Shown piece after piece: positions 26,626 to 44,642 of a stretch of DNA of 45,111 nt. Position numbers and translations under genes: made by a program. A model generated the notes under the pieces. That model did not search any database. It was given only the letters and a program-made list of their open reading frames with translations, and was not told where the DNA came from. Position 1 is the first letter of the stretch. Every line of letters begins with the position of its first letter. The stretch covers positions 1 to 45,111 of the forward strand of contig JBHIFL010000035.1 of the NCBI GenBank assembly GCA_046761065.1. The letters are read 5' to 3'. This DNA comes from Candidatus Heimdallarchaeota archaeon (lineage in GTDB: Archaea > Asgardarchaeota > Wukongarchaeia > Wukongarchaeales > JBHIFL01).

Positions 26626-27783
26626 AGAGTCACTTCTAAAAATGGGTTTTCCCTTTTGTCTAAAAATTATGCTCCCATCGGAAGGAGAATAATGTCGGGG
26701 CCTTATGTGGATATTGAGCAACGATGACAATTTCCACAAGATCCCTATTTGAAGAGGAGCGCCAGCTCCTATTTGAATTTCTCGACTCCGACAGCTTCGT
26801 GGCCAAGAGAGCCCAGCTCCTGCTCTTGTCCACGGAAGACCTTTCTCCCCCCAAAATCCAATCATTGGTCGATCTCCATGTCAAAACGGTGCGGAAGTGG
26901 ATCAAACGGTTCAACACCGAAGGCTTCCCAAGGCTCCTGAAGAAAGGTGGGAGCAGGCCCCTCACCTTTGCCCCCGCTGTCAGGAAGCGCATTGTTGAGG
27001 TGGCTCTGACCCAACCGGAGGAGCTCGCCTTCCCGTTCTCCACCTGGAGCCTGTACTCATTACGAACTTACCTGATCCAGGAGAAGGTCAGTGGGGATAT
27101 CTGTCCAGAAACCCTCCGAACCATTTTTGTGGAAGTGGGCCTCCGGTGGAGGCCGCACAAGACGTGGCTTTGGATCTCCGACCCACACTACGAAGTGAAG
27201 AAGCAGCAGGTCCTAGCTCTGTATAAAACCCCGACAGAGGACGTCATGGTCTTGTATGTGGACGAGAAGGGATCGATTGCCGCCAAAACTTATGGAGGGA
27301 GGAACTGGGCCGCGAAGAAGGAGGTGGTTGCGAGGAATCAAAAGATCAAAGGTAAAGTAATGTTGTTCGGCGCGTACAACCCGCACACCAAGGAGTTGCT
27401 GGGTCGGACTGCCGAACGGAAAGATGCGGAAGCCTTCCTTGCATTCCTCGCCGCCTTCGAAAAGGAGATCTCTGGGAAAAAACAGGTGATTTTGGACAAT
27501 TGTAGCGCCGATCATGCCAAGAAAGTGAAGGAATGGCTCAACGCGCATCCCACTCTTGAGCTTGTGTTTCTACCTACTAGTTCGCCCCACTTAAACAGGA
27601 TTGAGCAGGTGTTCGGAGATCTCCAGCGGGAATGTCTCAACAACCGCTCCTTCGAGGCACCGGACAAGGTGGAGGCGGCCCTGACGACCTACATCGCCTA
27701 TTTCAACACCCAGAGAAGAGCCCTGCTGAAAGGAGCCACAAATTATAAGTTAAAAAGGAATACCTATTTTTAGAAATGACTCT
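26626..27783 (+). mobile_element. IS630-family insertion sequence
   Basis: Imperfect terminal inverted repeats: left AGAGTCACTTCTAAAAATGGGTTTTCC, right (reverse complement) AGAGTCATTTCTAAAAATAGGTATTCC. Flanked by TA at 26624-26625 and 27784-27785; interior is more GC-rich than the flanks. Confidence 0.92.
26724..27773 (+). CDS. IS630-family DDE transposase
   Basis: N-terminal HTH (TVRKWIKRFN.EG), WSL..L, catalytic YVDE / ILDN / SPHLNRIE. The stop codon lies inside the right inverted repeat. Confidence 0.93.
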   Translation: MTISTRSLFEEERQLLFEFLDSDSFVAKRAQLLLLSTEDLSPPKIQSLVDLHVKTVRKWIKRFNTEGFPRLLKKGGSRPLTFAPAVRKRIVEVALTQPEELAFPFSTWSLYSLRTYLIQEKVSGDICPETLRTIFVEVGLRWRPHKTWLWISDPHYEVKKQQVLALYKTPTEDVMVLYVDEKGSIAAKTYGGRNWAAKKEVVARNQKIKGKVMLFGAYNPHTKELLGRTAERKDAEAFLAFLAAFEKEISGKKQVILDNCSADHAKKVKEWLNAHPTLELVFLPTSSPHLNRIEQVFGDLQRECLNNRSFEAPDKVEAALTTYIAYFNTQRRALLKGATNYKLKRNTYF

Positions 27784-29014: not shown

Positions 29015-31009
29015 GTGAGAAGCAGCTTAATACCAATGAGGGGCGCTATTATGGATATAGGAGTTTACATTTTAGGTGCAGGTTTTGCGGCAGGTTTTGT
29101 TGAATTATTTGTACTGGTATGGTTCAGTAGCCGAGAAAAAGAGAAATGGCAGCGCTTTAGTGAAATCTTTGCTGGTTTATCAACGTTATTCCTTGCTGTC
29201 GCCTTGGTTCTCTTGATGCGGTACTTCCTAACGGATAATTTCTCGTTCACATATGTAGTTGAACACAGTCAGGCGGACTCACCCGCTTTAATCAAACTAT
29301 CAGGAGTCTGGTCTGGACAAGAGGGAAGTCTTTTGTTGTGGGCAGTTTTAATTTCCTTTTTTGCGTTCCTTTATAAATCGGGGCAAAAAAAAGTAGATGA
29401 ACCGAGGGATGTACAGTTATCATACATAGTTCTTGCAATAGTCAATCTTGTTTTCATCCTTTTTATCTTAATGGACAGCCCATTCAAGACACAACGGGCA
29501 GTTTTGGATGGATACGGTTTGAATCCACTGTTACGAACGAAATGGAACGTTATACATCCAGTCATAGTTTTTGGGGGTTATGCAGCCACTACCGTTCCTT
29601 TTGCCATTGCTCTCTCGCAGTTGTTTTCACGCACTCCTATTAATCGACATCAAAAGATGCATCAAGACTTCCATATGGCTATTGCTTGGCTATTTCTCAG
29701 CCTTGGTATCATATTAGGAGGATATTGGGCTTATATAACCCTTGGCTGGGGTGGCTATTGGGCCTGGGATCCTGTTGAAACCGCTTCGTTGATCCCTTGG
29801 ATTCTTTGTACTGCATATTTTCACACTAAACCAATCTACAAATCAGAAAGTAGGATACCTAGTACACTGGCCGCTGTTCCGTTTATTACAGTTCTCTATG
29901 CAGCATATATCACCCGTGGGGGATCTATTCAGAGTGTGCATGCTTTTGCAGAATCGCCTGTAATATTAGGGATCATAATGCTTCTAGTTGGTTCCTTTGT
30001 CGTTATGATAATTCCATTTGCCCTGCGGCCGCTTCGTATTAGGTTTAGCCTCGTAGAATTCCAGAAGATGTCGCTCTATAAAAAGTCAATGGAGATCGCT
30101 TTCCTTTGTCTCATCGCTTTAGCCATTGTTTGTTTTTTGGGAATTTTTATTCCTTTGCTCCTTTTCATAGCAACGGGAGTGCAATATTCTGTTGAACCCG
30201 CGTTTTATACCTATGGCTGTTCTCCTTTTACATTAATACTGATTATTTCGCTGATATCGTGCCATATAACACGTTTCAAAAAAGCATATGACTTAAAGAG
30301 TCTCGGACGAATCATAATCCCCCCAATAGTGCTCGGAGTTCTTCTATTCTTTTTAAATATCCCTACTTACCATGGAATTGCCAACTTTGGGATACCAATA
30401 CTGGCTGTTGCAGTCGGGATCTCCCTCTACCGAATGCTGCAAAGTTCTTTTTCGATTGAAGCCTTTGATCGAGCCATACGAGAATCTTCACGATCAGCCA
30501 TTCATGCAGGTCTTGCAATAATCCTTTTGGGGGCATTTATCAGTTCAACAACACAACTCCATGAAAATGATGGGCAGACCTTTGAAGTTATCCTTGGGAG
30601 GACAACATTATTGGAGACCACAGGGATTTCAATACGAGTCTTTGATACACAATACCTTCGATTCACTTCAGAACTTGATTTTGAGATGTTAGTGACCATT
30701 GGTGTCATAGAAGGAGGAAGTATCTCTCTGAAGTCTGCCCATCTACTTGTTGATCCGAATTATTTGACAGCAAGTGGTGAGCCTAGACTTTACGCATTCC
30801 CCGCCATCTTTCACAGTTTGTGGCGAGATATTTATGTCTCTGTTGTTGGTATCTCTCAGAATAACTTTCTATTGCGGGTTTCGGTCATGCCATTCGTTTC
30901 ATTGGTATGGATTGGTTCAATTTTACTCTGTGTTGGAATTGTACCATTATTAGGTTACCGAGGAAAGACTCTCTTAGCATCCTCTCCTCCTACGGCTCAT
31001 ACAAGCTAG
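29015..31009 (+). CDS. ccmF: Cytochrome c maturation heme lyase CcmF (start may be 29051)
   Basis: WSGQEGSLLLW, GLNPLL, IHP, LGWGGYWAWDPVETASLIPW (WWD domain), TRGG...SVHAFA, P.V.LVWIG. Confidence 0.95.
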   Translation: MRSSLIPMRGAIMDIGVYILGAGFAAGFVELFVLVWFSSREKEKWQRFSEIFAGLSTLFLAVALVLLMRYFLTDNFSFTYVVEHSQADSPALIKLSGVWSGQEGSLLLWAVLISFFAFLYKSGQKKVDEPRDVQLSYIVLAIVNLVFILFILMDSPFKTQRAVLDGYGLNPLLRTKWNVIHPVIVFGGYAATTVPFAIALSQLFSRTPINRHQKMHQDFHMAIAWLFLSLGIILGGYWAYITLGWGGYWAWDPVETASLIPWILCTAYFHTKPIYKSESRIPSTLAAVPFITVLYAAYITRGGSIQSVHAFAESPVILGIIMLLVGSFVVMIIPFALRPLRIRFSLVEFQKMSLYKKSMEIAFLCLIALAIVCFLGIFIPLLLFIATGVQYSVEPAFYTYGCSPFTLILIISLISCHITRFKKAYDLKSLGRIIIPPIVLGVLLFFLNIPTYHGIANFGIPILAVAVGISLYRMLQSSFSIEAFDRAIRESSRSAIHAGLAIILLGAFISSTTQLHENDGQTFEVILGRTTLLETTGISIRVFDTQYLRFTSELDFEMLVTIGVIEGGSISLKSAHLLVDPNYLTASGEPRLYAFPAIFHSLWRDIYVSVVGISQNNFLLRVSVMPFVSLVWIGSILLCVGIVPLLGYRGKTLLASSPPTAHTS

Positions 31010-31345: not shown

Positions 31346-33401
31346 TTATTTTTTGGTTTTTGGATTTTGGCGGGATGATACAAAGTGTCGACCATAAAGC
31401 CAACTTACTAAGGCAATGATTGCAATGAATCCTTCAAAACTTCCAATTGTCCGCTGCTCTTGTGGAATTTCGAAAGTCATGACATCCGTTACACCTGAAT
31501 TGCCGAAAAAATCGTAGGCTGTGAAGTAGAATTCTACTGTGGAATCACCGGGGAAAGGACCTATTGTGATGTTGAATAGGTTCCCGTTGATTTGGGAGAG
31601 CGCCAGCATTTCCCATTTACCTCCATTTATACGGTAATGAATTGTGACATTCCTTACGTCGATTTGGGGTCGATCATCCACTACATGCACTGTAATCTCT
31701 ACAGGCTCTAAAGCCTGTGGTGTGGGCGGTTTAACTTCGGAAATATGGATTGAAGGGCCCATTTGATCTTCGGTAACTATGAATTCATAGAATTTTCTGG
31801 AGAATTCCTCTCCCATTGAGTTGTTGGCCCACACTACAATTCTTACTAGAGTTCCATTTAAGAATGGTCCAATCTCCGCTTCATATGTATAAGCGGCTTG
31901 GGTTGGTTCCATTAGAATCGATTGCGTTGCCATATTATCATTGAGATTGTATCTGAGAATTACACACTCAATAGGACTTAGACCAAAAGCAGAAACTGAA
32001 ATCGTGATTTTATCGAGTGGTGTTGGGGTGATTGGATGCCATTGGAGATTGGTTACAACTGAGTTGCCCGTATTAAGTGTTTTGAGTAAAATTTCTACCC
32101 CTAACGCTTGAGGAATTGCAAATTTATTCGTGTTTTGGATCTCCCCCATCATATCATGAGCTATGTAGAATCCTTTGTATTCCACATCCCAGAAGTGCTT
32201 AATAACAAATTCAAGGGTTTCTAAAATGATGCGAAATAAGTAGTTGGCGTATTCGAAAGCCCCTGGTACCTCTGTGTTATGCGATAATTCTCGATAGACT
32301 TTAAACGCTTCTAAAAGTGCCAGGATCATATAAAACTGTTTACTTGATGCCTTTGACATGGTTTCATCGACAATCAAGCCATCTTCTGAGGTGTGTGCAA
32401 AGAATCCACCATTATTGGGATCCCTGAGATGGGATAGCGAGAAGGAGATCGTTTTGTTGATGTAATCTAAGTAGCGTTTATCATTAATCTTGTGGTACAT
32501 CTCACTTAAGGCGCGTATCATTAAGGCTTGGGTGACAGTACGTTTCAGTCGACCATCAATCGGGACAGTTCCGTTAGCTGTTGAATATACATAAAACCCA
32601 GTGTTGTTCTTATCCCAAAGATATGTTAAAGCGAACTCTACTGTCTGATGTGCGCGCTCGAGGTATATTTCCGCTCCAAATTGGTCAAACGCAGCAATTA
32701 GCGCACTAATCACGAAAGCTTGGGATTGGGCATCTTTGTACATATCTAAGGTCCCATTGAAATCCGCAAAAAAAAAACCCTCTATTAATATCATCCCAAA
32801 GTTGTTGGAGCATGAATTTGATTGTCCTATTCGCTTGAGACAGATAGAGGGCTGTTCTCGATTCATTATAGGCGGCAATCAGTGCGGATGTAACTATTGC
32901 CTGATAGAGGGCATACTTTATCTCAGCTTGAGGATTATTTACATGCGGGTAAGCACTAAGAACGGCTCCATCTTCTGCCCAAAAATCACGTATCAATGCG
33001 TCCGCAGCACTCGTAAGTCGATTCAATATTATTGCGCGCAACGTCTGGTTCTCAACCTGTGGATACGTGTAAGCCAATGCATTAATACACATCGCTTGCT
33101 CAAACGTAATATATTCGGATCGTATCGTAGGGGTTCCATCACGTCCTACTTCTTTTAAGAAATGGCTTGTTTCCGCGTTCCAAAGGTAATTCAATAATTG
33201 TTCAAGTGTTTCCTGTGCATACTTTGCAAAAGGAGTTGTAGTTCCCCCATATAGAAACTTGCTCGAGTTCACCATCTCAAGAGAGTTTTGTAACGTATGA
33301 GTGGTTCCCACTGTGATTCCGAAAATAAAGAGTTGATTGCAGGTTAGAAGTAAAAGTAGGAAGCAACTGACACAAAAAGATTGAGATCTATGCGTAATCA
33401 T
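31346..33401 (-). pseudogene. Frameshifted surface protein: AGE-epimerase-like (alpha/alpha)6 repeats, two Ig-like domains, C-terminal TM anchor
   Basis: ORFs 32706-33401 and 31346-32878 join at a T10 tract (A10 at 32768-32777). Removing one T gives WDDINRGFFFAD, matching the repeats WDKNNTGFY, RDPNNGGFF and WDVEYKGFY; fused length 684 aa. Confidence 0.8.
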
Positions 33402-33568: not shown

Positions 33569-34936
33569 TTAGGTAGCGCGTCGTCTTCGAAGAGCCGCAG
33601 CTAGTAAGGCGATGCCAAGACCTAACACTGTCAACAACTGTAAACCGGTTTCGCTCACGGTAACTGTTTTTGATGGTTCCATTGCTTCCTCTGAGTATCG
33701 GATAACTTCATGGGCTTCCATAGTGGCTTCATCAAGCATTTCCTCAAGGTGCCAAGGATCATGGAATGCTAGAGTTTCTGAATGTCCAATTTCACCCCAA
33801 ACCTCATCGAGGGTTTCGTAGTGTTCCGCAGCTTTCGCTAGCTTACTGGGATCAACTCCTGTGGTCGTGTTTGCCGTCTCAAATACTTCTTCAGCTTGTA
33901 CCACTGATTCATTGACCTTAGCGAGTTTCTCTTCATATTGCTCTATGAGTGCGTCTTTTGCTGCCCAAGCCGCTTCGGGATCAGTATGGCAACCCGTTTC
34001 GTTTGTGTTAAGGTTTTTTTGGCCACAAGATGCTAACGTGGGAGACATGGTGTGGTTTGTATTTTTGTCCCAAGACTCAGTACGAGTGGAGTAATCTGTG
34101 CCATACATATGGCAGGTAGCACAGGTCACATCTTCATACTCTTCTTCTTCCCAATTGTAGACTTGTCTTTGCAAGTGTGGACCAGTATCCGTTTCGTGCG
34201 AGTGGCAAACTACACACAAATCAAACACGGTTTCCTCTCGGAGGATGTCATGTTCTTTAACTGCGTGAGGGTCATGGCACACCGCACAGGTGATCCCATT
34301 CTCAATTTCAGCGAAGGTATTAACTTCCCACACGGCTCCTTCAGCGGACATACAATGGATACACCGTGGAACTTCAACACCTGATTCAATGATTGTTACG
34401 TTCGAATGCGCATGCCCACTCATCGACCATCGTTCATAGTGTTTACCATGGGTACTGTGAAATGGGGAGTGACATTCACCACACAGCTCGGCAGCGAGGG
34501 TGACTGGCATGTGACCCGGGCCACCGGGTCCTTGGAAGGGTCCATGGCAGGTCTCACAGGACACCCCATCAACTACTGGGTCGTTTGTTGCGGTGAACCC
34601 GTACAAGTCTTCACCGATGAACTTCCCTGTTTCAAAGTTGGTTCCATTGACGTGGCACGTATAGCACTCGCGTTCAGGTGTTATATGAGTCGAAGCATTC
34701 CATGCAAGTTGATGCATCGATCCTTCCCATGCTGCTTTTTGATCTGGGTGGCACCCACCACAAAAATCAGGTCCCATGTATGTACCTTCTTGCATTGTTT
34801 CACTAGTCTCGGTAGCAACGTATGTGGTAGACGCTGAGAACGTTTCACCGATAAGAAGGACTGATGTAAGAAGGATTGAACTCCAGAAGAGTAGTAACAA
34901 TCGCCGTCGTTTGATAATTTGTTTACTTGTTTTCAA
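33569..34936 (-). CDS. Membrane-anchored multiheme cytochrome c 1 (7 CxxCH + CxxCM + CX11CH), NrfA/OcwA-like C-terminal half
   Basis: CGGCH, CYTCH, CETCH, CGECH, CIHCM, CAVCH, CVVCH, CATCH, CGQKNLNTNETGCH; signal peptide; helical tail with FHDP; C-terminal TM + RRRR; AGGTGAG RBS. Confidence 0.93.
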   Translation of the reverse strand: MKTSKQIIKRRRLLLLFWSSILLTSVLLIGETFSASTTYVATETSETMQEGTYMGPDFCGGCHPDQKAAWEGSMHQLAWNASTHITPERECYTCHVNGTNFETGKFIGEDLYGFTATNDPVVDGVSCETCHGPFQGPGGPGHMPVTLAAELCGECHSPFHSTHGKHYERWSMSGHAHSNVTIIESGVEVPRCIHCMSAEGAVWEVNTFAEIENGITCAVCHDPHAVKEHDILREETVFDLCVVCHSHETDTGPHLQRQVYNWEEEEYEDVTCATCHMYGTDYSTRTESWDKNTNHTMSPTLASCGQKNLNTNETGCHTDPEAAWAAKDALIEQYEEKLAKVNESVVQAEEVFETANTTTGVDPSKLAKAAEHYETLDEVWGEIGHSETLAFHDPWHLEEMLDEATMEAHEVIRYSEEAMEPSKTVTVSETGLQLLTVLGLGIALLAAALRRRRAT

Positions 34937-35142: not shown

Positions 35143-35826
35143 TTAAGTCTCAAAAAGATTTCCAATAAGAAACAAAGATAAAATAAGTATTATGAGAAAA
35201 TGAGACCCAACGAATACAAGTTCAGGGGCAATTTCGTGGAAATTGGCCCCAGCGAGTGTTTTTTCGGTTCCTACCACTACAGGAAGCAAAGCCGGAATGA
35301 TTATTGGAAACATCAGAATGGGGATCAGAATGGATTTAGCTTCGGTGTGCATTGTTAAGGCGCCAACGATGCAGCCAGCAAAAGCAAGATCTAAGGAACC
35401 AATTATCAATAAACCAATAGCTGGAACCACAGCTAATTCATAGTTAAAGAGAATAATACTCAAAGGAACTAATATGATCTCCACACAGGCAACCACAACA
35501 ATGCTGAAAAACATTTTCGCTGCTAAGATTGCTTGGGGCGATATGGGGGTTGATTTCAGTCCGTCAAGTGTTCCTTTGTCAATTTCTCGGGCAAAAGAGG
35601 TAGGAACATTTAACATAATCGTAAAGAATAGTATGACCCAAAGGAGAGCAGGAATCACTTCATCCACATAGAGAAAGAAAGGACCTAACGAATAAGAAAA
35701 TGCCAAAAGAGCTATGGCTGAAAAAAGTATTAAAGAGATCATTTCATGTTTCCGTCGAAATAATAGTCGTATATCTTTCACGGTAAGAGTTTTTATTCTC
35801 TGGAATTCAGATATTGAAGCACCCAT
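35143..35826 (-). CDS. ccmB: Heme exporter permease CcmB
   Basis: KD.RL.FR, LLWV, FAREIDKGTLDGL..P, L.PIL.FP..IP.L; directly downstream of ccmA. Confidence 0.9.
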   Translation of the reverse strand: MGASISEFQRIKTLTVKDIRLLFRRKHEMISLILFSAIALLAFSYSLGPFFLYVDEVIPALLWVILFFTIMLNVPTSFAREIDKGTLDGLKSTPISPQAILAAKMFFSIVVVACVEIILVPLSIILFNYELAVVPAIGLLIIGSLDLAFAGCIVGALTMHTEAKSILIPILMFPIIIPALLPVVVGTEKTLAGANFHEIAPELVFVGSHFLIILILSLFLIGNLFET

Positions 35827-35835
35827 AGAGATCTC

Positions 35836-36567
35836 TCATCGTTTTGGTGCATGTACGTCTTGGATTTTGCCTTTTTTTAGAAGGCAAATCCAATCAGAAA
35901 AGGCATAGGCAAGATCTTTATTGTGAGTTGTTAGAATGATCGTTTTTCTATTTTTCACCTGTCGTAGAAATTTTTGTACTATATCCGTACTTTTTTCATC
36001 CAATCCTGCAAAAATTTCATCAAGAACCAAGAGTTCTGGATTGTGTGCTAGTGTTCGGATTAAATCAACGCGTTTACGCTGTCCACTAGACAATTGAGAA
36101 ACGGGTTCATGTAATAAGGACTCAATGCCGAAAAGTCTTATGAATTTGTCAAGTTGTTGGTTCGGATTTGGTCCCGGTCCCTCTTTTTCTGGCTTACCCA
36201 TCATCTTAAGATAGAAAACTAAATTTTCCAAAGAGGTAAATTCGTCATATAGAAGTGATTGATGAGCAAGATATCCAATTCTTTTCTTAACTTGATAAGA
36301 TGCCTTTGTTACGTCTTTTTGGAAGATATAGAGTCGTCCCGAAGAGGCAGTAAGGATTGTAGCTATCATCTTGATCAGGGTACTCTTTCCCGCCCCATTG
36401 GGTCCCAGGATACTGAATATCGTTCCTCTTGGTACCTGAAGGTTAACCTTATTGACTGCGACCTTATAGCCAAACCGTTTAGTGAGATTTTCTGTCAGAA
36501 CTGCAACGGATTGATCGGAATCAATTGATCCCTGTTGATGCTGATTTCTTTGTTCCATTTTTGTCAT
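35836..36567 (-). CDS. ccmA: Heme exporter ABC ATPase CcmA
   Basis: GPNGAGKST, GYLAHQSLLY, LSSGQRKR, LVLDE, TTH; ccm context. Confidence 0.9.
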   Translation of the reverse strand: MTKMEQRNQHQQGSIDSDQSVAVLTENLTKRFGYKVAVNKVNLQVPRGTIFSILGPNGAGKSTLIKMIATILTASSGRLYIFQKDVTKASYQVKKRIGYLAHQSLLYDEFTSLENLVFYLKMMGKPEKEGPGPNPNQQLDKFIRLFGIESLLHEPVSQLSSGQRKRVDLIRTLAHNPELLVLDEIFAGLDEKSTDIVQKFLRQVKNRKTIILTTHNKDLAYAFSDWICLLKKGKIQDVHAPKR

Positions 36568-36606: not shown

Positions 36607-36990
36607 CTATTCATACTTTGAGGGGCATTGCATCAACAGCTTTTGGGCTTCAAATTCCCCAGCACTTATCAGTTGACCGATCGCCACAATTTTTTGGTTT
36701 TCTTGTAAACCAGTCGGCGGAACATCGTGATAAGTTATCTGAATTGCATCGTTTGAGTGTTTGATGTCTTGGAGAATGAAGTTTGTAATAAGACCTGAGT
36801 AAGTTAAAGAACCACTTGCGACAACTCCGACTAATTGGATGTTTTTACTTAGATACGCAGAGGGATTCTGCTGCAACTCTGAAACTGTTATATAAGGATT
36901 CACAAATGATGACATGGATAGATAGATTGCAACAGATGCTACTACTAGAAAGATTCCTCCAATAACCAGCTTTATTGATTTTTTAGGCAT
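36607..36990 (-). CDS. ccmE: Heme chaperone CcmE, CxxxY type (System I*)
   Basis: N-terminal TM, YITVSEL, C-terminal CPSKY instead of HxxxY. Confidence 0.93.
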   Translation of the reverse strand: MPKKSIKLVIGGIFLVVASVAIYLSMSSFVNPYITVSELQQNPSAYLSKNIQLVGVVASGSLTYSGLITNFILQDIKHSNDAIQITYHDVPPTGLQENQKIVAIGQLISAGEFEAQKLLMQCPSKYE

Positions 36991-37331: not shown

Positions 37332-38138
37332 TTAGTACGACTCCTCATATTTTCTGATTTTTAAATGGATTTCGGTACGCTCAATTCTGAGGGTTATACG
37401 AAGTAAGTATATAAACAAGAACGTGACAGCCACGACAGAGGCAAGAAGTGTGATCCCCATTTCCGGAACCATTGCGATACCACCCTCCTGGCCGGCAATT
37501 ACTATCGGGTGTAGGGAATAATATATCCGTGTGGATAAATAACTCAATGGCACAGTGGGAAAGATAAGAACCCCGAGAACTGCCGAAATGCGTGCACGCT
37601 GTTCTGGATCCTTCGTTGCAAATCGAAGGGATAAATAAGCGGCGTAGCCGAACCAAAGAATCAAGGTTGTAGTTTGTCGGGGATCCCAATTCCAATATGT
37701 CCCCCATGTCGCGTTCGAAAAGATGGACCCCGTAATGATCGCAATGGTACAAAAGAGAACCCCCAGCTCCACAGAAGATACCGACAAAAGATCATAATGA
37801 TCCGATTTTTCTCTCAAATATAGCAGACTACTTACGAATGTAATTCCAAAGGCGAGATAGCTGACCCAAGCAGCGGGAATGTGTAAATAGATGATACGTA
37901 TATTGTCACCCAAATTGACTTCAGGTGGAGAAAAAACATAAACCATGTATTCGGCCAATAGAAAGATTATAATTGTCGTGATCAAGAGGATTCTGTCGGA
38001 TCTATCGATTTCCGAGAATTTTTGTTGAATACGCGGCTTCTCTGGTTTTTCTTCTAGGTTACGAGTTTTTGTTCTAGGTCTAGTATCGATCTTCATACCT
38101 TTCGCCATTTTTTTGTTTTCACGATCTGTCAAATACAT
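37332..38138 (-). CDS. ccmC: Heme exporter/transfer protein CcmC (start uncertain)
   Basis: RIIYLHIPAAW, WGTYWNWDPRQTT (WWD domain), SLHP. Confidence 0.95.
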   Translation of the reverse strand: MYLTDRENKKMAKGMKIDTRPRTKTRNLEEKPEKPRIQQKFSEIDRSDRILLITTIIIFLLAEYMVYVFSPPEVNLGDNIRIIYLHIPAAWVSYLAFGITFVSSLLYLREKSDHYDLLSVSSVELGVLFCTIAIITGSIFSNATWGTYWNWDPRQTTTLILWFGYAAYLSLRFATKDPEQRARISAVLGVLIFPTVPLSYLSTRIYYSLHPIVIAGQEGGIAMVPEMGITLLASVVAVTFLFIYLLRITLRIERTEIHLKIRKYEESY

Positions 38139-39080: not shown

Positions 39081-40373
39081 TTAATCAAAGCGGTGACGTC
39101 TAAGAACAGCTACTAGTAAAATTGTTATACCAAATCCTAGTACGGTCAAAAGAAGGAAATTTGGTTCGCTCACTGATGCCTCTGAGAGCTGGATAACTTC
39201 ATCACAGTCTATAATGAGTTGGTCTATGGCAGCTGTCATTTCGTCAGGATTATGGAATCCTTGGCTACCCATAAGGCCAATATCATGCCAGAATTTGTCA
39301 ATTTCTTCTATCTTGGCTTCAGCTTGAGCTATTATCGTTGGATCCGCTCCAGCGGTATATTTTGCTTTCTCAAAGGCTTCGTGTGCTTCTGCCACCTTTT
39401 CATCAGCCAACGCATAAATATCAGAATATTCCGCTTGGATGTTATTTTTACCATCCCATGCTGCTTCGGGGTCACGGTGACAACCCTCCTGACCGCACGC
39501 CCCCACCCAAGTGAACATTGTATGATTCGTCACTTGGATCCATTTCCCCTCGGGATCTTGAGCCCACCCATACATATGACAAGTTGTACATTCAGCGCCT
39601 TGTAGATCATGGTGGCTGCCTTTATACATCGCTGTTTGGTGTTCGTGACAAACCGCACACAATTCAGTAGATTCTGCTTCTCGAAGATTGTATGCGTACT
39701 CGGCAGAATGTACATTATGACAAACTGGGCAAGAAATCGAGTTTTCAGTCTCAGTTAAGGTATCGACTCCACCCAGTGGCCAAGGTAGTGCACCTTCGGC
39801 AGTATGGCAATGTACACATTGCGGTTGCTCGAAACCACCTTCCAAAAGATTTTCTCGTGCACGTACGTGATTGGATTGGCTCCATGCTTCGAATGCATTT
39901 CCATGACCCCACGAGTGAAACGGGCTATGACAAGCCCCACACAACTCCGCACTCAAGGTAACTGGCATGTGGCCAGCACCTGCGGTTCCGTCGTATGGGC
40001 CATGACAGGTCTCGCAGGACACCCCATCGTAGACTGGGTCGTTCGTAGCGGTGATCCCGAAATAGTCGGCTCCGATGGTACTGTTGATGTGGCACGAATA
40101 GCACTCTATATCACTATTAGCACCCAAAGCATCAAATGCCGTAGCATGACCCGTCTCGCTCCACGCTTCATACTTCTCCGCGTGGCACGTCTTGCAAGTG
40201 TCGGGACCCACGTACTCAAAGTCTTGAGATGTTTCAACAGTTTCGGTGGTGGCAAGGTGTGTGATAGACATTGAAAACGCTTCGCTGACAATCAGGGCGG
40301 AGGAAAGAAGAATTAAGCTCCAGAAAAGTAATAGTATTCGTCGTCGCTTGACAAATCGATTTATGGGTTTCAA
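39081..40373 (-). CDS. Membrane-anchored multiheme cytochrome c 2 (8 CxxCH + CX4CH), NrfA/OcwA-like C-terminal half
   Basis: CKTCH, CYSCH, CETCH, CGACH, CVHCH, CPVCH, CAVCH, CTTCH, CGQEGCH; SQGFHNP motif; C-terminal EPNF + TM + RRHR. Confidence 0.93.
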   Translation of the reverse strand: MKPINRFVKRRRILLLFWSLILLSSALIVSEAFSMSITHLATTETVETSQDFEYVGPDTCKTCHAEKYEAWSETGHATAFDALGANSDIECYSCHINSTIGADYFGITATNDPVYDGVSCETCHGPYDGTAGAGHMPVTLSAELCGACHSPFHSWGHGNAFEAWSQSNHVRARENLLEGGFEQPQCVHCHTAEGALPWPLGGVDTLTETENSISCPVCHNVHSAEYAYNLREAESTELCAVCHEHQTAMYKGSHHDLQGAECTTCHMYGWAQDPEGKWIQVTNHTMFTWVGACGQEGCHRDPEAAWDGKNNIQAEYSDIYALADEKVAEAHEAFEKAKYTAGADPTIIAQAEAKIEEIDKFWHDIGLMGSQGFHNPDEMTAAIDQLIIDCDEVIQLSEASVSEPNFLLLTVLGFGITILLVAVLRRHRFD

Positions 40374-40506: not shown

Positions 40507-40850
40507 TTAGGTAACAATTCATTTTCTAATAGCCACAACTAGTAGGGCTATTCCAATACCTAGCACCACCATAAGCTGCATGCCTAGTTCACTCACGGTT
40601 GATGTTAATGTCACTGTTTTTGGTGTCGCCTTCGGATCCTAAGAAAATCAGATAACTTTTTCAGCTACGCTAATGGCTTCAGTGATCATGTCATTGATAT
40701 GTCATGAATCATAAACCTTATTTTTCTTTGCCCAGTCAACTCGATCATGAGCTATCGGTCTTCAATTTCCTGGATTTTTACTATACTTCGTTAATTTAGC
40801 TGAATCATTGCGAGTGGTCGTGTTTACTTTCTCGAAGGCTTTTTGTACCA
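40507..40850 (-). pseudogene. C-terminal remnant of a third multiheme cytochrome paralog
   Basis: Manual translation VQKAFEKVNTTTRNDSAKL...YDS*HINDMITEAISVAEKVI*FS*...KTVT...VSELGMQLMVVLGIGIALLVVAIRK*IVT* aligns with the tail of the protein at 33569-34936; the 3' flank is also similar. Confidence 0.85.
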
Positions 40851-41191: not shown

Positions 41192-42070
41192 TCAAAGCAT
41201 TGGTCCCAGTATAATCACAACATACCGAAGCACGAATCCACCGACCAGTATGAGAAGAGTTGAGAGGTAGAGTGTTAATGAGCCACTGATTCTCATTCCG
41301 AGCAAAGGTAGTCCAATCTTTCCTAATAAAACTCCCCCACCAAGGAAGATTAGTGTGAACAGTGTCCCATATATCGATCCTATATTCAAAAGTGCTGTCC
41401 TTGCATCTATAGGCAGAAAAACCATGTATGCAAGAACTATCAATAATTCGAGCACTCCCAAGATCACCATCAGCTTAGGCAGATGTTGCCACAGCCTTGT
41501 CTGCTCTATCTCTCGTGTGGATTTCGCGATAAACAAAAAAAGTGCATAGCCCATGCCTAGTGTAGAGACGAGGAATAATAGAGGCACTGTGGGATTATTC
41601 CAAAGCGAGTGGCTTGTGTAAGTTAGGAGGACTCCCGAGTAAGTTCCGATCATAAAGGCGATCATTCCACCTAAGGTAACTATTACAGTTCTGTGTCTCT
41701 GTAGCATTTCCCATAAAGACGGTACTCGGTTTTTGATTAGAATACCGGTCTGAGCGAACCAGTAGATAAGGCCAAGTACCATAAGAGTTATTATTAAAAT
41801 AGTACCCCAGCTTATTGGAGAAGTAAGGTGCGGATAGAAAATCATCTTATATGCTCGTTCTGGGTGCCCTAGACTTAAAGCCAACATTATTATTCCAAGA
41901 GTGATGAGGATCAAAGACCAACTGACTCCACGTACGAAGGTTCTCTTGAATGTATTGCTTGGATTGAAGGATTCTAGTCCTGCTATTGCGGCAAATAGCC
42001 CTGCACCGAGTCCACTTAAAAAGAGATAGAGTGTGATTAATCCACCCCAACTGTCCAACTCATGCCCCAC
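41192..42070 (-). CDS. NrfD/PsrC family membrane subunit, copy 2
   Basis: WG..I..YLFLSGLGAG, LGHPER, SPISWG, YSGVLL, LWN.P..P.LFLVS, GGFVLRY; about 8 TM segments. Confidence 0.9.
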   Translation of the reverse strand: MGHELDSWGGLITLYLFLSGLGAGLFAAIAGLESFNPSNTFKRTFVRGVSWSLILITLGIIMLALSLGHPERAYKMIFYPHLTSPISWGTILIITLMVLGLIYWFAQTGILIKNRVPSLWEMLQRHRTVIVTLGGMIAFMIGTYSGVLLTYTSHSLWNNPTVPLLFLVSTLGMGYALFLFIAKSTREIEQTRLWQHLPKLMVILGVLELLIVLAYMVFLPIDARTALLNIGSIYGTLFTLIFLGGGVLLGKIGLPLLGMRISGSLTLYLSTLLILVGGFVLRYVVIILGPML

Positions 42071-42332: not shown

Positions 42333-43208
42333 TCAGAGCGATTGGCCCAGGAAAACAATTACATATCGGAGTATAAATCCGCCAAACACCACAAGGACAG
42401 TTGAGAGGTAAACTATCTCGGAGCCACCTATTTTCGTCCCAAGCAAAGGTAGTCCAATCTTTCCTAATAATACCCCTCCAACAAGAAAGATCAGTGTAAA
42501 CAACGTTCCATATATGGTTTTTAGACTAAGGAGTGCTGCCTGTGTCCCAGCAGTTAGCAAGCTCAAGTATGTGAGAACTAGCAATAACTCAACTACTCCT
42601 AGGATCATCAACAGACGAGGCAAGTGTCGCCATAACCCCGTCTGTTCCACCTCTCCCGCAAGTTTTGCAAGGAACAGAAAGAGCCCATAACCCGTACCTA
42701 GCGCGGATACGAGGAATAGTAGAGGCAATACTGGACTATTCCAAAGGCTGAACCTAGCGTAGGTTAGGAGAATTCCTGTGTAAGTTCCAGTCATAAAAGC
42801 GAAAATGCCACCAAAAATAACTATTATTATCTTAAATCTATTTAAAAGCCTCCATAAGGGTGGCATCAGTTTTCTAATTAGAAAACCTGTATGAGCGAGC
42901 CAGTATGCAAGACTAAAGATCAAAAACGTTGCGATCGTTATCGAACCCCAACTCATAGGAGAATTAAGTTGTGGGTGGAGCATTGTATTAACGGCTCTTT
43001 CTGGATGTCCTAAGTCTAAAATAAGTGTTATCAATCCAAAAGTTAGAATAATCCAAGAACAAGTAGCCCCCCATGTTAAGGTCTTTTCATACATTACACT
43101 TGGACTGAAGGCTTCTAACCCTGCAACTGAAATGAATAACCCAGCACTTAACCCCCCTAGAAAGAGATCGAATGTGATAAACCAGCCCCAAACGACCAAT
43201 GCATTCAC
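42333..43208 (-). CDS. NrfD/PsrC family membrane subunit, copy 1
   Basis: WGW.I...LFLGGLSAG, DLGHPER, SPMSWG, YTGILL, LWNSP.LP.LFLVSA, GGFILRY. Confidence 0.9.
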   Translation of the reverse strand: MNALVVWGWFITFDLFLGGLSAGLFISVAGLEAFSPSVMYEKTLTWGATCSWIILTFGLITLILDLGHPERAVNTMLHPQLNSPMSWGSITIATFLIFSLAYWLAHTGFLIRKLMPPLWRLLNRFKIIIVIFGGIFAFMTGTYTGILLTYARFSLWNSPVLPLLFLVSALGTGYGLFLFLAKLAGEVEQTGLWRHLPRLLMILGVVELLLVLTYLSLLTAGTQAALLSLKTIYGTLFTLIFLVGGVLLGKIGLPLLGTKIGGSEIVYLSTVLVVFGGFILRYVIVFLGQSL

Positions 43209-43257: not shown

Positions 43258-44172
43258 TTAGACTTTATCTTCGTTAGTTTCAATAGATTCTGTTACTTCT
43301 TTGATTCTTCTCATTCTCAAGGCACCTAACGTAAGAAGACCACCTATTCCAGCCGCAACAAGCATCGGTGGTCCCCTACCGACAGCTGATACATAGCCTT
43401 CAGTTTCTACTTTTGGAAACACACTGTTCTTTACAGGGTCAAATGTCTTCGGGAAGAGATATAATACTCCAAGTCCCCCAAGTTCTTTAAGACCATATAT
43501 CCAGAGATTTTGGTTTTGAGAGACGGCATTTTGAGCCCTTGCAACAATGTCATCTCTAGGGCCAAATCTAAGAGCACCTGTAGGACAGGCGTTCGCGCAA
43601 GCAGGTAACTTACCATCCTGAACACGCCAATAACAACCGTCGCATTTTCGACTTACGCCATGAGGCGCATACACCCCTACACTTGGCCCCTCATTTTTAT
43701 GAGGACGACCATAGGGACATGCATTCACACAATAGCCGCAACCGATGCAGCGATCTGGATCTATGTAGACTAGACCTTTCCACTTTCTTACCGCCTCGAC
43801 AGGACAAACTAATTGGCACATTGCCTTTTCACAATGCATGCAAGAATATCTGACATATGGGTTCTCTTGAGTCCCCACCTTACTTGGCAAAGCTGATTGT
43901 GCTTTCGAGACATATAACCAATTTGTTGGGGTGAGTTCTAGTTCAACTCTTCCTTTGGGAAAATTGTGTTTATTTTTACAGGCGAAGTGGCAGAGATTAC
44001 AACCGATGCAGGTCTCAGAATCGTACAAGAATGTATATCTCTGATTTTGAGCCGTAGCTGGGTTGAGTGACTGTTCCATTCCAAAAACAGAGGCTGTTGC
44101 GAGCCCTAAAAGTGCTGTCTTGAGGAATGTCCTCCGATCAATTAGCATAGACTCAGTTTCTTCCGCTTCCAA
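43258..44172 (-). CDS. Tat-exported 4x[4Fe-4S] electron-transfer subunit (HybA/NrfC/FdnH-like) with a C-terminal TM helix
   Basis: IDRRTFLK twin-arginine signal; CIGCNLCHFAC, CMHC..AMCQLVCP, CIGCGYCVNACP, KCDGC...PACANACP. Likely TTG start at 44172 after GGAGGT; the ORF-track extension to 44322 is AT-rich promoter-like DNA. Confidence 0.92.
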   Translation of the reverse strand: MEAEETESMLIDRRTFLKTALLGLATASVFGMEQSLNPATAQNQRYTFLYDSETCIGCNLCHFACKNKHNFPKGRVELELTPTNWLYVSKAQSALPSKVGTQENPYVRYSCMHCEKAMCQLVCPVEAVRKWKGLVYIDPDRCIGCGYCVNACPYGRPHKNEGPSVGVYAPHGVSRKCDGCYWRVQDGKLPACANACPTGALRFGPRDDIVARAQNAVSQNQNLWIYGLKELGGLGVLYLFPKTFDPVKNSVFPKVETEGYVSAVGRGPPMLVAAGIGGLLTLGALRMRRIKEVTESIETNEDKV

Positions 44173-44642
44173 TTTTAAACCTCCAACTTTTTTGCGAGAT
44201 GTTATTTCCATGTATCCGGTATAGACTTGACCTATAAATATATTATGATGTATATACTTTATATTTTTTTGGTATTTGAAATTAGATTTTTTTATATATT
44301 GTATATAGCATATTATATGCAAATAGATGATTATTGTTAATCACTATTATAAATTTGCCTTATATATTAGAAGTATTTGGAACCGAATTATATCATAAAA
44401 AAAATAAGTATAATTAAATTAATATTATTATTTAGTCATTTTTATTTATAATTAAATAAGCAAATAGAATAATTTTTCTTTGAAATCTTAGTGAAATAGA
44501 ATACATAACAATAGCAACCACTAAAGTCCTATTAACCATTCTTTATTCCCAGGAATGCACAGCCATCTTTTAAAAGGGATTTTTCCTATATTTCGTGAGC
44601 ATATATAACTTCATAATTCTATAGAGGACTAGGAATCGGTCA

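Follow-up and report, generated by a model that had tools for sequence, protein, structure and literature searches.

Cys-x-His-Cys-Met in place of a canonical heme motif in OcwA-like multiheme cytochromes of Asgard archaea

What holds the iron of a c-type heme if the motif that should bind it ends in Met instead of His? This question is raised by a cytochrome gene on a contig of a Candidatus Heimdallarchaeota archaeon (GenBank assembly GCA_046761065.1, contig JBHIFL010000035.1), which we analysed over 45,111 nucleotides (the window). The gene for cytochrome 1 (33569..34936, minus strand), delimited by its open reading frame, sequence searches and a structural model, encodes 455 residues with nine heme-type motifs. 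The fifth motif (34349..34363, minus strand) is a variant, C192-I-H194-C195-M196. The plus strand of this segment reads catacaatggataca, and its reverse complement, TGT ATC CAT TGT ATG, encodes C-I-H-C-M. A paralog, cytochrome 2 (39081..40373, minus strand; 430 residues), is encoded about 4 kb away and is 45% identical over the full length. It has a canonical fifth motif, CVHCH (39804–39818, minus strand; codons tgt gta cat tgc cat), and the distal sequence SHHD. The original prediction had set CIHCM against CVHCH and had pointed out that ATG and CAT are unlike at all three codon positions; re-reading of the sequence confirmed both statements. The two residues between Cys192 and Cys195 are the spacing of a canonical c-type heme site. 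The axial His that should follow the second Cys directly is absent, and Met196 is found instead.

The cytochrome 1 gene showed no letter differences in the per-run contigs of four hydrothermal-vent metagenome runs, which are possibly the source of this DNA. Relatives that are 86% identical and come from other data sets also have CIHCM. A sequencing or assembly error was ruled out on both grounds. Nor is CIHCM a chance pentapeptide, because the alignment of 61 family members, with identities as low as about 25%, shows both Cys residues of this site without exception. The context P-x-C-x-H-C-[M/H]-[S/T] is identical in Met types and His types, and the AF2 model has the usual helix end at residues 190–196, with a local pLDDT of about 95.

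Cytochrome 1 starts with an N-terminal signal or anchor helix and ends with a membrane helix followed by RRRR; with such ends, the protein should face outward. Seven of its motifs are CxxCH, one is CxxCM and one is CX11CH. As had been predicted, CIHCM is followed by four further heme motifs (CAVCH at 217, CVVCH at 241, CATCH at 272 and C304-x11-C316-H317) and by a helical tail, which contains AFHDP at residues 390–394 of cytochrome 1 and GFHNP in the paralog. According to the alignment and the AF2 model (overall pLDDT 83.6; the model carries no heme), the tail is a three-helix bundle (residues 320–419; 33680..33979, minus strand) with helices at 320–357, 363–386 and 394–419 and an invariant F391-H392. 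The long spacer of the ninth motif (33986..34027, minus strand) was recognized from the sequence and the alignment of relatives. Its length varies among close relatives, which have CxxCH, CX4CH (the paralog, 39477–39497), CX10CH or CX11CH (cytochrome 1), and spacers of 3 to 12 residues also occur at motifs 1, 4 and 9 across the Asgard members. The long insert of cytochrome 1 contains an N-x-T sequon.

By sequence, fold and motif order, cytochrome 1 belongs to the OcwA/OmhA branch (clade 3) of the NrfA superfamily and is not an NrfA. Among solved structures, a single-sequence phmmer search ranked OcwA of Thermincola potens first (6i5b; E 1.8e-10). With a profile built from 61 relatives, the match to 6i5b reached E 1.2e-74 and that to OmhA (6qvm) E 6.1e-51. 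Upon superposition with VIA-align, residues 51–409 of the AF2 model matched OcwA with Z 19.1 and an rmsd of 3.2 Å over 296 residues; the value for OmhA was Z 16.9. For several NrfA structures, Z was 15.0–15.6 with an rmsd of about 3.1 Å over about 248 residues (144–423 of the model), and the model shares the five-heme core fold and helical bundle of NrfA. Pfam searches with cytochrome 1 returned generic multiheme domains only, with no match to PF02335 (NrfA) at E 0.01; no NrfA model was among the NCBIfam matches, none of which reached its cut-off. The active-site heme motif has neither the CxxCK nor the CxxCH form found in NrfA. From the Tyr/His/Arg set of the NrfA distal pocket, His has a counterpart in His254, as judged by alignment. 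The relatives bear the database name 'nitrite reductase c552', but this label is unsupported in view of the nine motifs, the Met residue and the missing Pfam and NCBIfam matches to NrfA.

Which heme does CIHCM correspond to? In OcwA, hemes 5–9 superpose on the NrfA core and heme 5 constitutes a second active site; hemes 2 and 5 are five-coordinate, with a proximal His and a distal His-His pair, and the related MccA has no heme 5 at all (PMC6703420). Both the single-sequence and the profile alignment pair CIHCM with CLKCH of OcwA, which is the fifth motif by order. CIHCM thus falls on OcwA heme 5 and hence on the active-site heme of NrfA. This supports the register that had been proposed from the sequence, as does the predicted structure, the fold of which matches both OcwA (Z 19.1) and NrfA (Z 15.4). 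The profile alignment to 6i5b further places His254, within GPHLQ (34175..34177, minus strand), on the distal His381 of OcwA heme 5. The preceding residue is Pro, compared with His (H380) in OcwA, and the paralog has His-His at this place, the assignment resting on alignment.

Cytochrome 1 shares with OcwA the nine motifs in the same order (four c554-like followed by five NrfA-like), the C-terminal three-helix bundle with a G-x-H-N/D-P motif, a putative distal His that aligns with the one over heme 5, and the outward-facing location. It differs from OcwA in the proximal residue of heme 5, which is His (CLKCH) there and Met here, with His kept in the paralog. A β-sheet insertion of about 80 residues between hemes 1 and 2 of OcwA (residues 75–156) is missing from cytochrome 1 in the profile alignment, the ninth motif is CX11CH, and a C-terminal membrane helix serves as the anchor. 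The host, in addition, is an archaeon, with a Ccm system in which CcmE ends in CxxxY. NrfA (2RDZ, 1FS7, 1OAH) likewise has a variant motif at this very heme, CxxCK, so that the position already accepts a ligand other than His, and genes of the NrfC and NrfD type are found in the cytochrome 1 locus; NrfA has, however, five heme motifs rather than nine, and Lys in place of Met. CxxCK of NrfA and CX15CH of MccA resemble CIHCM in that a single, specific heme of an NrfA-superfamily cytochrome has a motif other than CxxCH, but in both of them a nitrogen ligand (Lys or His) follows the second Cys. Dedicated lyases are known for the CxxCK and CX15CH motifs.

To see how widespread Met is at this position, we scanned 400 Asgard species genomes and compared 61 near-full-length family members (median pairwise identity 31%). 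The family occurs in 51 of the 400 genomes and is confined to three families. The residue after the second Cys of motif 5 is Met in 53 of the 61 members, Gln in three and His in three, while two have lost the motif, including its Cys residues. Met is therefore not a peculiarity of cytochrome 1, which had been left as a possibility by the original prediction. The seven electron-transfer motifs (1, 3, 4, 6, 7, 8 and 9) have His in 60–61 of the 61 members. At motif 2, which is poorly aligned in one Asgard family, we found His in 49, Met in 11 and one gap. Residues other than His are thus limited to motifs 2 and 5, the equivalents of the two open-site, five-coordinate hemes of OcwA. Five proteins from five genomes of one Asgard family have CGHCM or CSHCM at motif 2, and one more has CAGCM. 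The variant is C-x-His-Cys-Met as one unit and it recurs at heme 2, neither of which had been noticed in the earlier reading. Five cytochromes (L009, L011, L012, L014 and L015) have C-x-His-Cys-Met at both open-site positions.

These counts bear on whether the site holds a heme at all. It could be heme-free, which would make the protein in effect an octaheme cytochrome; Cys-x-His-Cys-Met would then form a disulfide or bind a different metal, for instance copper, for which Cys, His and Met are all good ligands. The electron chain would survive a loss of heme 5, which is a terminal branch and is absent from MccA; indeed, two Asgard members have lost motif 5 entirely, and CXXCM is not matured by the Ccm system of E. 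coli. On the other hand, those two members have lost the Cys residues as well, whereas an abandoned pocket would not be expected to keep invariant Cys in 61 sequences, the context of a heme motif and, mostly, the distal His. The same variant at a second heme position also speaks against a vacated site, and we consider this explanation unlikely.

Within the own subfamily of cytochrome 1, the residue at motif 5 is labile: it is His in six, Met in five and Asn in five sequences (15 close relatives, 45–86% identical, plus P0033; one of the 15 is labelled Heimdallarchaeota). An exhaustive search gave clusters at 50% identity, the named members of which are Hodarchaeota; 22 of the cluster representatives have Met, and there are isolated cases of Asn, Val, Leu, Gln and Arg and one of Lys. 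A ligand at exactly this residue is thus dispensable in some lineages. A second homolog search with the profile added few family members, and the phylum-wide genome scan was far more informative. In the tree, the ligand residue changes at least five times on well-supported branches, His and Met types are interleaved, and Met predominates in the archaeal clade. A change from His (CAY) to Met (ATG) takes three nucleotide substitutions; it can proceed by single steps through Asn and then Lys, two residues that do occur at this position.

Such a pattern might be produced by relaxed constraint in the own subfamily, where His, Met and Asn would drift without functional meaning and gene conversion between paralogs could account for the patchiness. 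The mixed residues of the close relatives and the interleaving on the tree are as expected from this explanation, and the genome holds a His-type and a Met-type copy as well as a decayed fragment. Plain drift is nevertheless disfavoured by the three changes between His and Met, which force repeated switches onto multi-step paths, by the narrow set of residues and by the strong conservation of Met outside the subfamily; we regard it as very unlikely.

A further regularity concerns the residue just before the second Cys (x2), which is His194 in cytochrome 1. In a set of 119 sequences, x2 His is accompanied by Met after the second Cys in 76 cases and by His in five; with another residue at x2, Met was found once and His 24 times. 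In other words, x2 is His in 76 of the 77 Met types and in five of the 29 His types. The counts are suggestive of an association between x2 His and loss of the canonical His. Owing to the shared ancestry of most Met types, a sign test on independent pairs had only about six contrasts to work with and was not significant (median p 0.25). Most Met types keep the distal His, although one subclade has CLHCM without an aligned distal His. A search of the alignment for columns that could supply a replacement ligand gave no convincing candidate; besides x2 His, the best discriminating columns were Asn294, which precedes the invariant His295, and unrelated gaps. In one Asgard family, three paralogs with canonical His (L062, L063 and L066; CMRCH, CMYCH) have neither x2 His nor the distal His; their distal pair is QY, DQ or EQ, compared with RH or HH in their CMHCM relatives. 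This sequence pattern is a hint that iron ligation has switched from one face of the heme to the other.

Might the heme then be attached and its iron held from elsewhere? The ligand could be His194 (Lys in some relatives) after a shift in register, or a distal His such as His254, with the proximal face open or loosely capped. Such an arrangement would explain why Val, Leu and Asn are tolerated in place of Met while x2 His is mostly kept (CLHCV, CAHCV, CMHCN, CMHCQ, CLHCK), and why x2 is often Lys where neither position is His (CLKCM, CLKCL, CMKCQ). It would also fit the regain of canonical His together with absence of x2 His and distal His in the paralogs just described. In a c-type heme, however, the residue before the second Cys faces away from the iron, so that a His there should be out of reach unless the backbone is rearranged, and x2 His could act as ligand only at this cost. 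Moreover, conservation of Met in 53 of 61 members is far above that of a mere filler, and the CLHCM subclade has no aligned distal His that could step in. Ligation from elsewhere therefore appears rather unlikely, yet it is a stronger rival than an empty site.

The capacity of the host to mature such a site may be judged from its Ccm genes, most of which surround the cytochromes. The ccmF gene for the heme lyase (29015..31009, plus strand) was assigned by alignment to Thermus CcmF, including the WGGYWAWDPVE loop. It converges on a series of minus-strand genes: ccmB (35143..35826), ccmA for the ABC ATPase (35836..36567), ccmE (36607..36990), an ORF for a CcmD-like protein of 53 residues, ccmC (37332..38138), the paralog, two genes for membrane subunits of the NrfD family (41192–42070 and 42333–43208) and the gene for an iron–sulphur subunit of the NrfC/HybA/DsrO type with several 4Fe-4S domains (43258..44322). 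CcmE ends in C-P-S-K-Y (a CxxxY ending); CcmA, CcmB, CcmC and the NrfD-type and iron–sulphur subunits were assigned by domain searches. The gene order reads as a conduit from quinol to a surface cytochrome, equipped with its own maturation genes. A search of the genome, which is 91% complete, for a dedicated heme lyase found none, but one CcmF and two CcmC-like genes, and the alignment of CcmF to the Thermus protein revealed no unusual feature. The second CcmC-like gene (L008, on contig C209 of genome G000) ends at the contig end. Its neighbours encode a small, C-terminally anchored monoheme cytochrome c (CIVCH), a thioredoxin-like fragment and a CcdA-like membrane protein; whether L008 belongs to the genome is uncertain because the estimated contamination is 8%.

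The reading that we prefer is that the heme is bound by thioether bonds to Cys192 and Cys195 and has Met196 as its proximal ligand, to which we give an even chance. It is favoured by the invariant Cys residues, the unchanged motif context and local fold, the distal His kept in most Met types and the presence of Lys at the same position of NrfA. Several points count against it. Engineered CXXCM, CXXCK and CXXCR sites were reported not to be matured by the Ccm system of E. coli (PMC4158909), and the only CcmF found in this genome is an ordinary one. Residues unable to ligate are tolerated in place of Met. Finally, the motif-5 residue is labile in the own subfamily (His 6, Met 5, Asn 5).

In this picture, cytochrome 1 is a nine-heme member of the OcwA/OmhA branch that is exported and held at the membrane by its C-terminus; it is encoded beside Ccm genes and a quinol module of the NrfC/NrfD type. 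Its fifth heme site corresponds to OcwA heme 5 and NrfA heme 1, the heme that is open to solvent and binds the substrate, and carries the conserved Cys-x-His-Cys-Met. The heme would still be held by its two thioethers, and the sulphur of Met196 would take the proximal axial place of the usual His. On the far face, His254 may be non-bonding, as in OcwA, or may serve as the sixth ligand. His194 could serve the Ccm machinery as the nitrogen ligand required for heme attachment, or it could shape the site. With Met as ligand, this terminal heme would be expected to have a higher potential and to differ in what it binds, and the locus would then encode a Met-type and a His-type version of one conduit. 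More generally, the variant lies at the catalytic heme of NrfA-family enzymes and should therefore affect both potential and substrate binding.

Extended to the family, this leads us to propose, tentatively and as something short of an even bet, that Cys-x-His-Cys-Met represents a new class of c-type heme motif. Its heme would be attached covalently by an ordinary archaeal Ccm system that has no dedicated lyase, perhaps with x2 His as a nitrogen handle, and would have Met as the proximal ligand. The motif would mark the two substrate-accessible hemes of Asgard OcwA-like cytochromes, and exchange with His between paralogs would provide for different potential or chemistry.

A conserved heme-type motif of the form Cys-x-His-Cys-Met has apparently not been described. 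Literature searches for a natural CxxCM heme motif found no published case, and papers that we consulted on the metabolism of the Heimdall/Hod group of Asgard archaea mention no multiheme or NrfA-type cytochromes. The host families belong to this group, which is discussed as related to eukaryotes. If the heme-binding motif itself does supply a proximal Met, this would be a new way to hold a c-type heme and would challenge the rule, derived from E. coli, that Ccm maturation needs the His of the motif. Counting CxxCH under-reports the putative hemes of such cytochromes. The locus offers a natural pair of Met-type and His-type paralogs for direct comparison; together with its relatives, it adds a series of His, Met and Asn within one subfamily and the restriction, column by column, of variation to motifs 2 and 5. 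The comparison also adds the link, in one Asgard family, between a proximal His and loss of the distal His.

The same genome encodes a third family member (L003:1495-2388, on contig C34 of G000) in which motif 5 reads CVHCM and no distal His is aligned. Its frame is open over 387 residues, but the first ATG gives only 297 residues. As it lacks heme 1 and the signal peptide, the gene may be truncated or frameshifted. Next to it is the gene for an exported protein of 419 residues with one CxxCH and a tail of the same kind, consisting of V-S-E, a membrane helix and RRRR.

Some further features were observed in the window. Between ccmF and the cytochrome 1 gene lies a gene for a GlcNAc-2-epimerase-like α/α-toroid protein with a CBM-like tail and a membrane anchor. 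It is split into two minus-strand ORFs (32706–33401 and 31346–32878) by a frameshift in a run of ten T (32764–32773). In the per-run contigs of all four metagenome runs, there is one T fewer at 32768 and the ORFs are joined; thus, the split is probably an assembly artefact. The stretch that separates the paralog from the NrfD genes contains a decayed cytochrome copy (40519–40848, minus strand), interrupted by four TGA codons and one TAG codon. Its match to the profile is limited to positions 327–431, which correspond to the C-terminal helical part. Just upstream of the island formed by ccmF and the cytochromes there is a transposase gene (26724–27773, plus strand), the product of which contains DDE_3 and helix-turn-helix domains.
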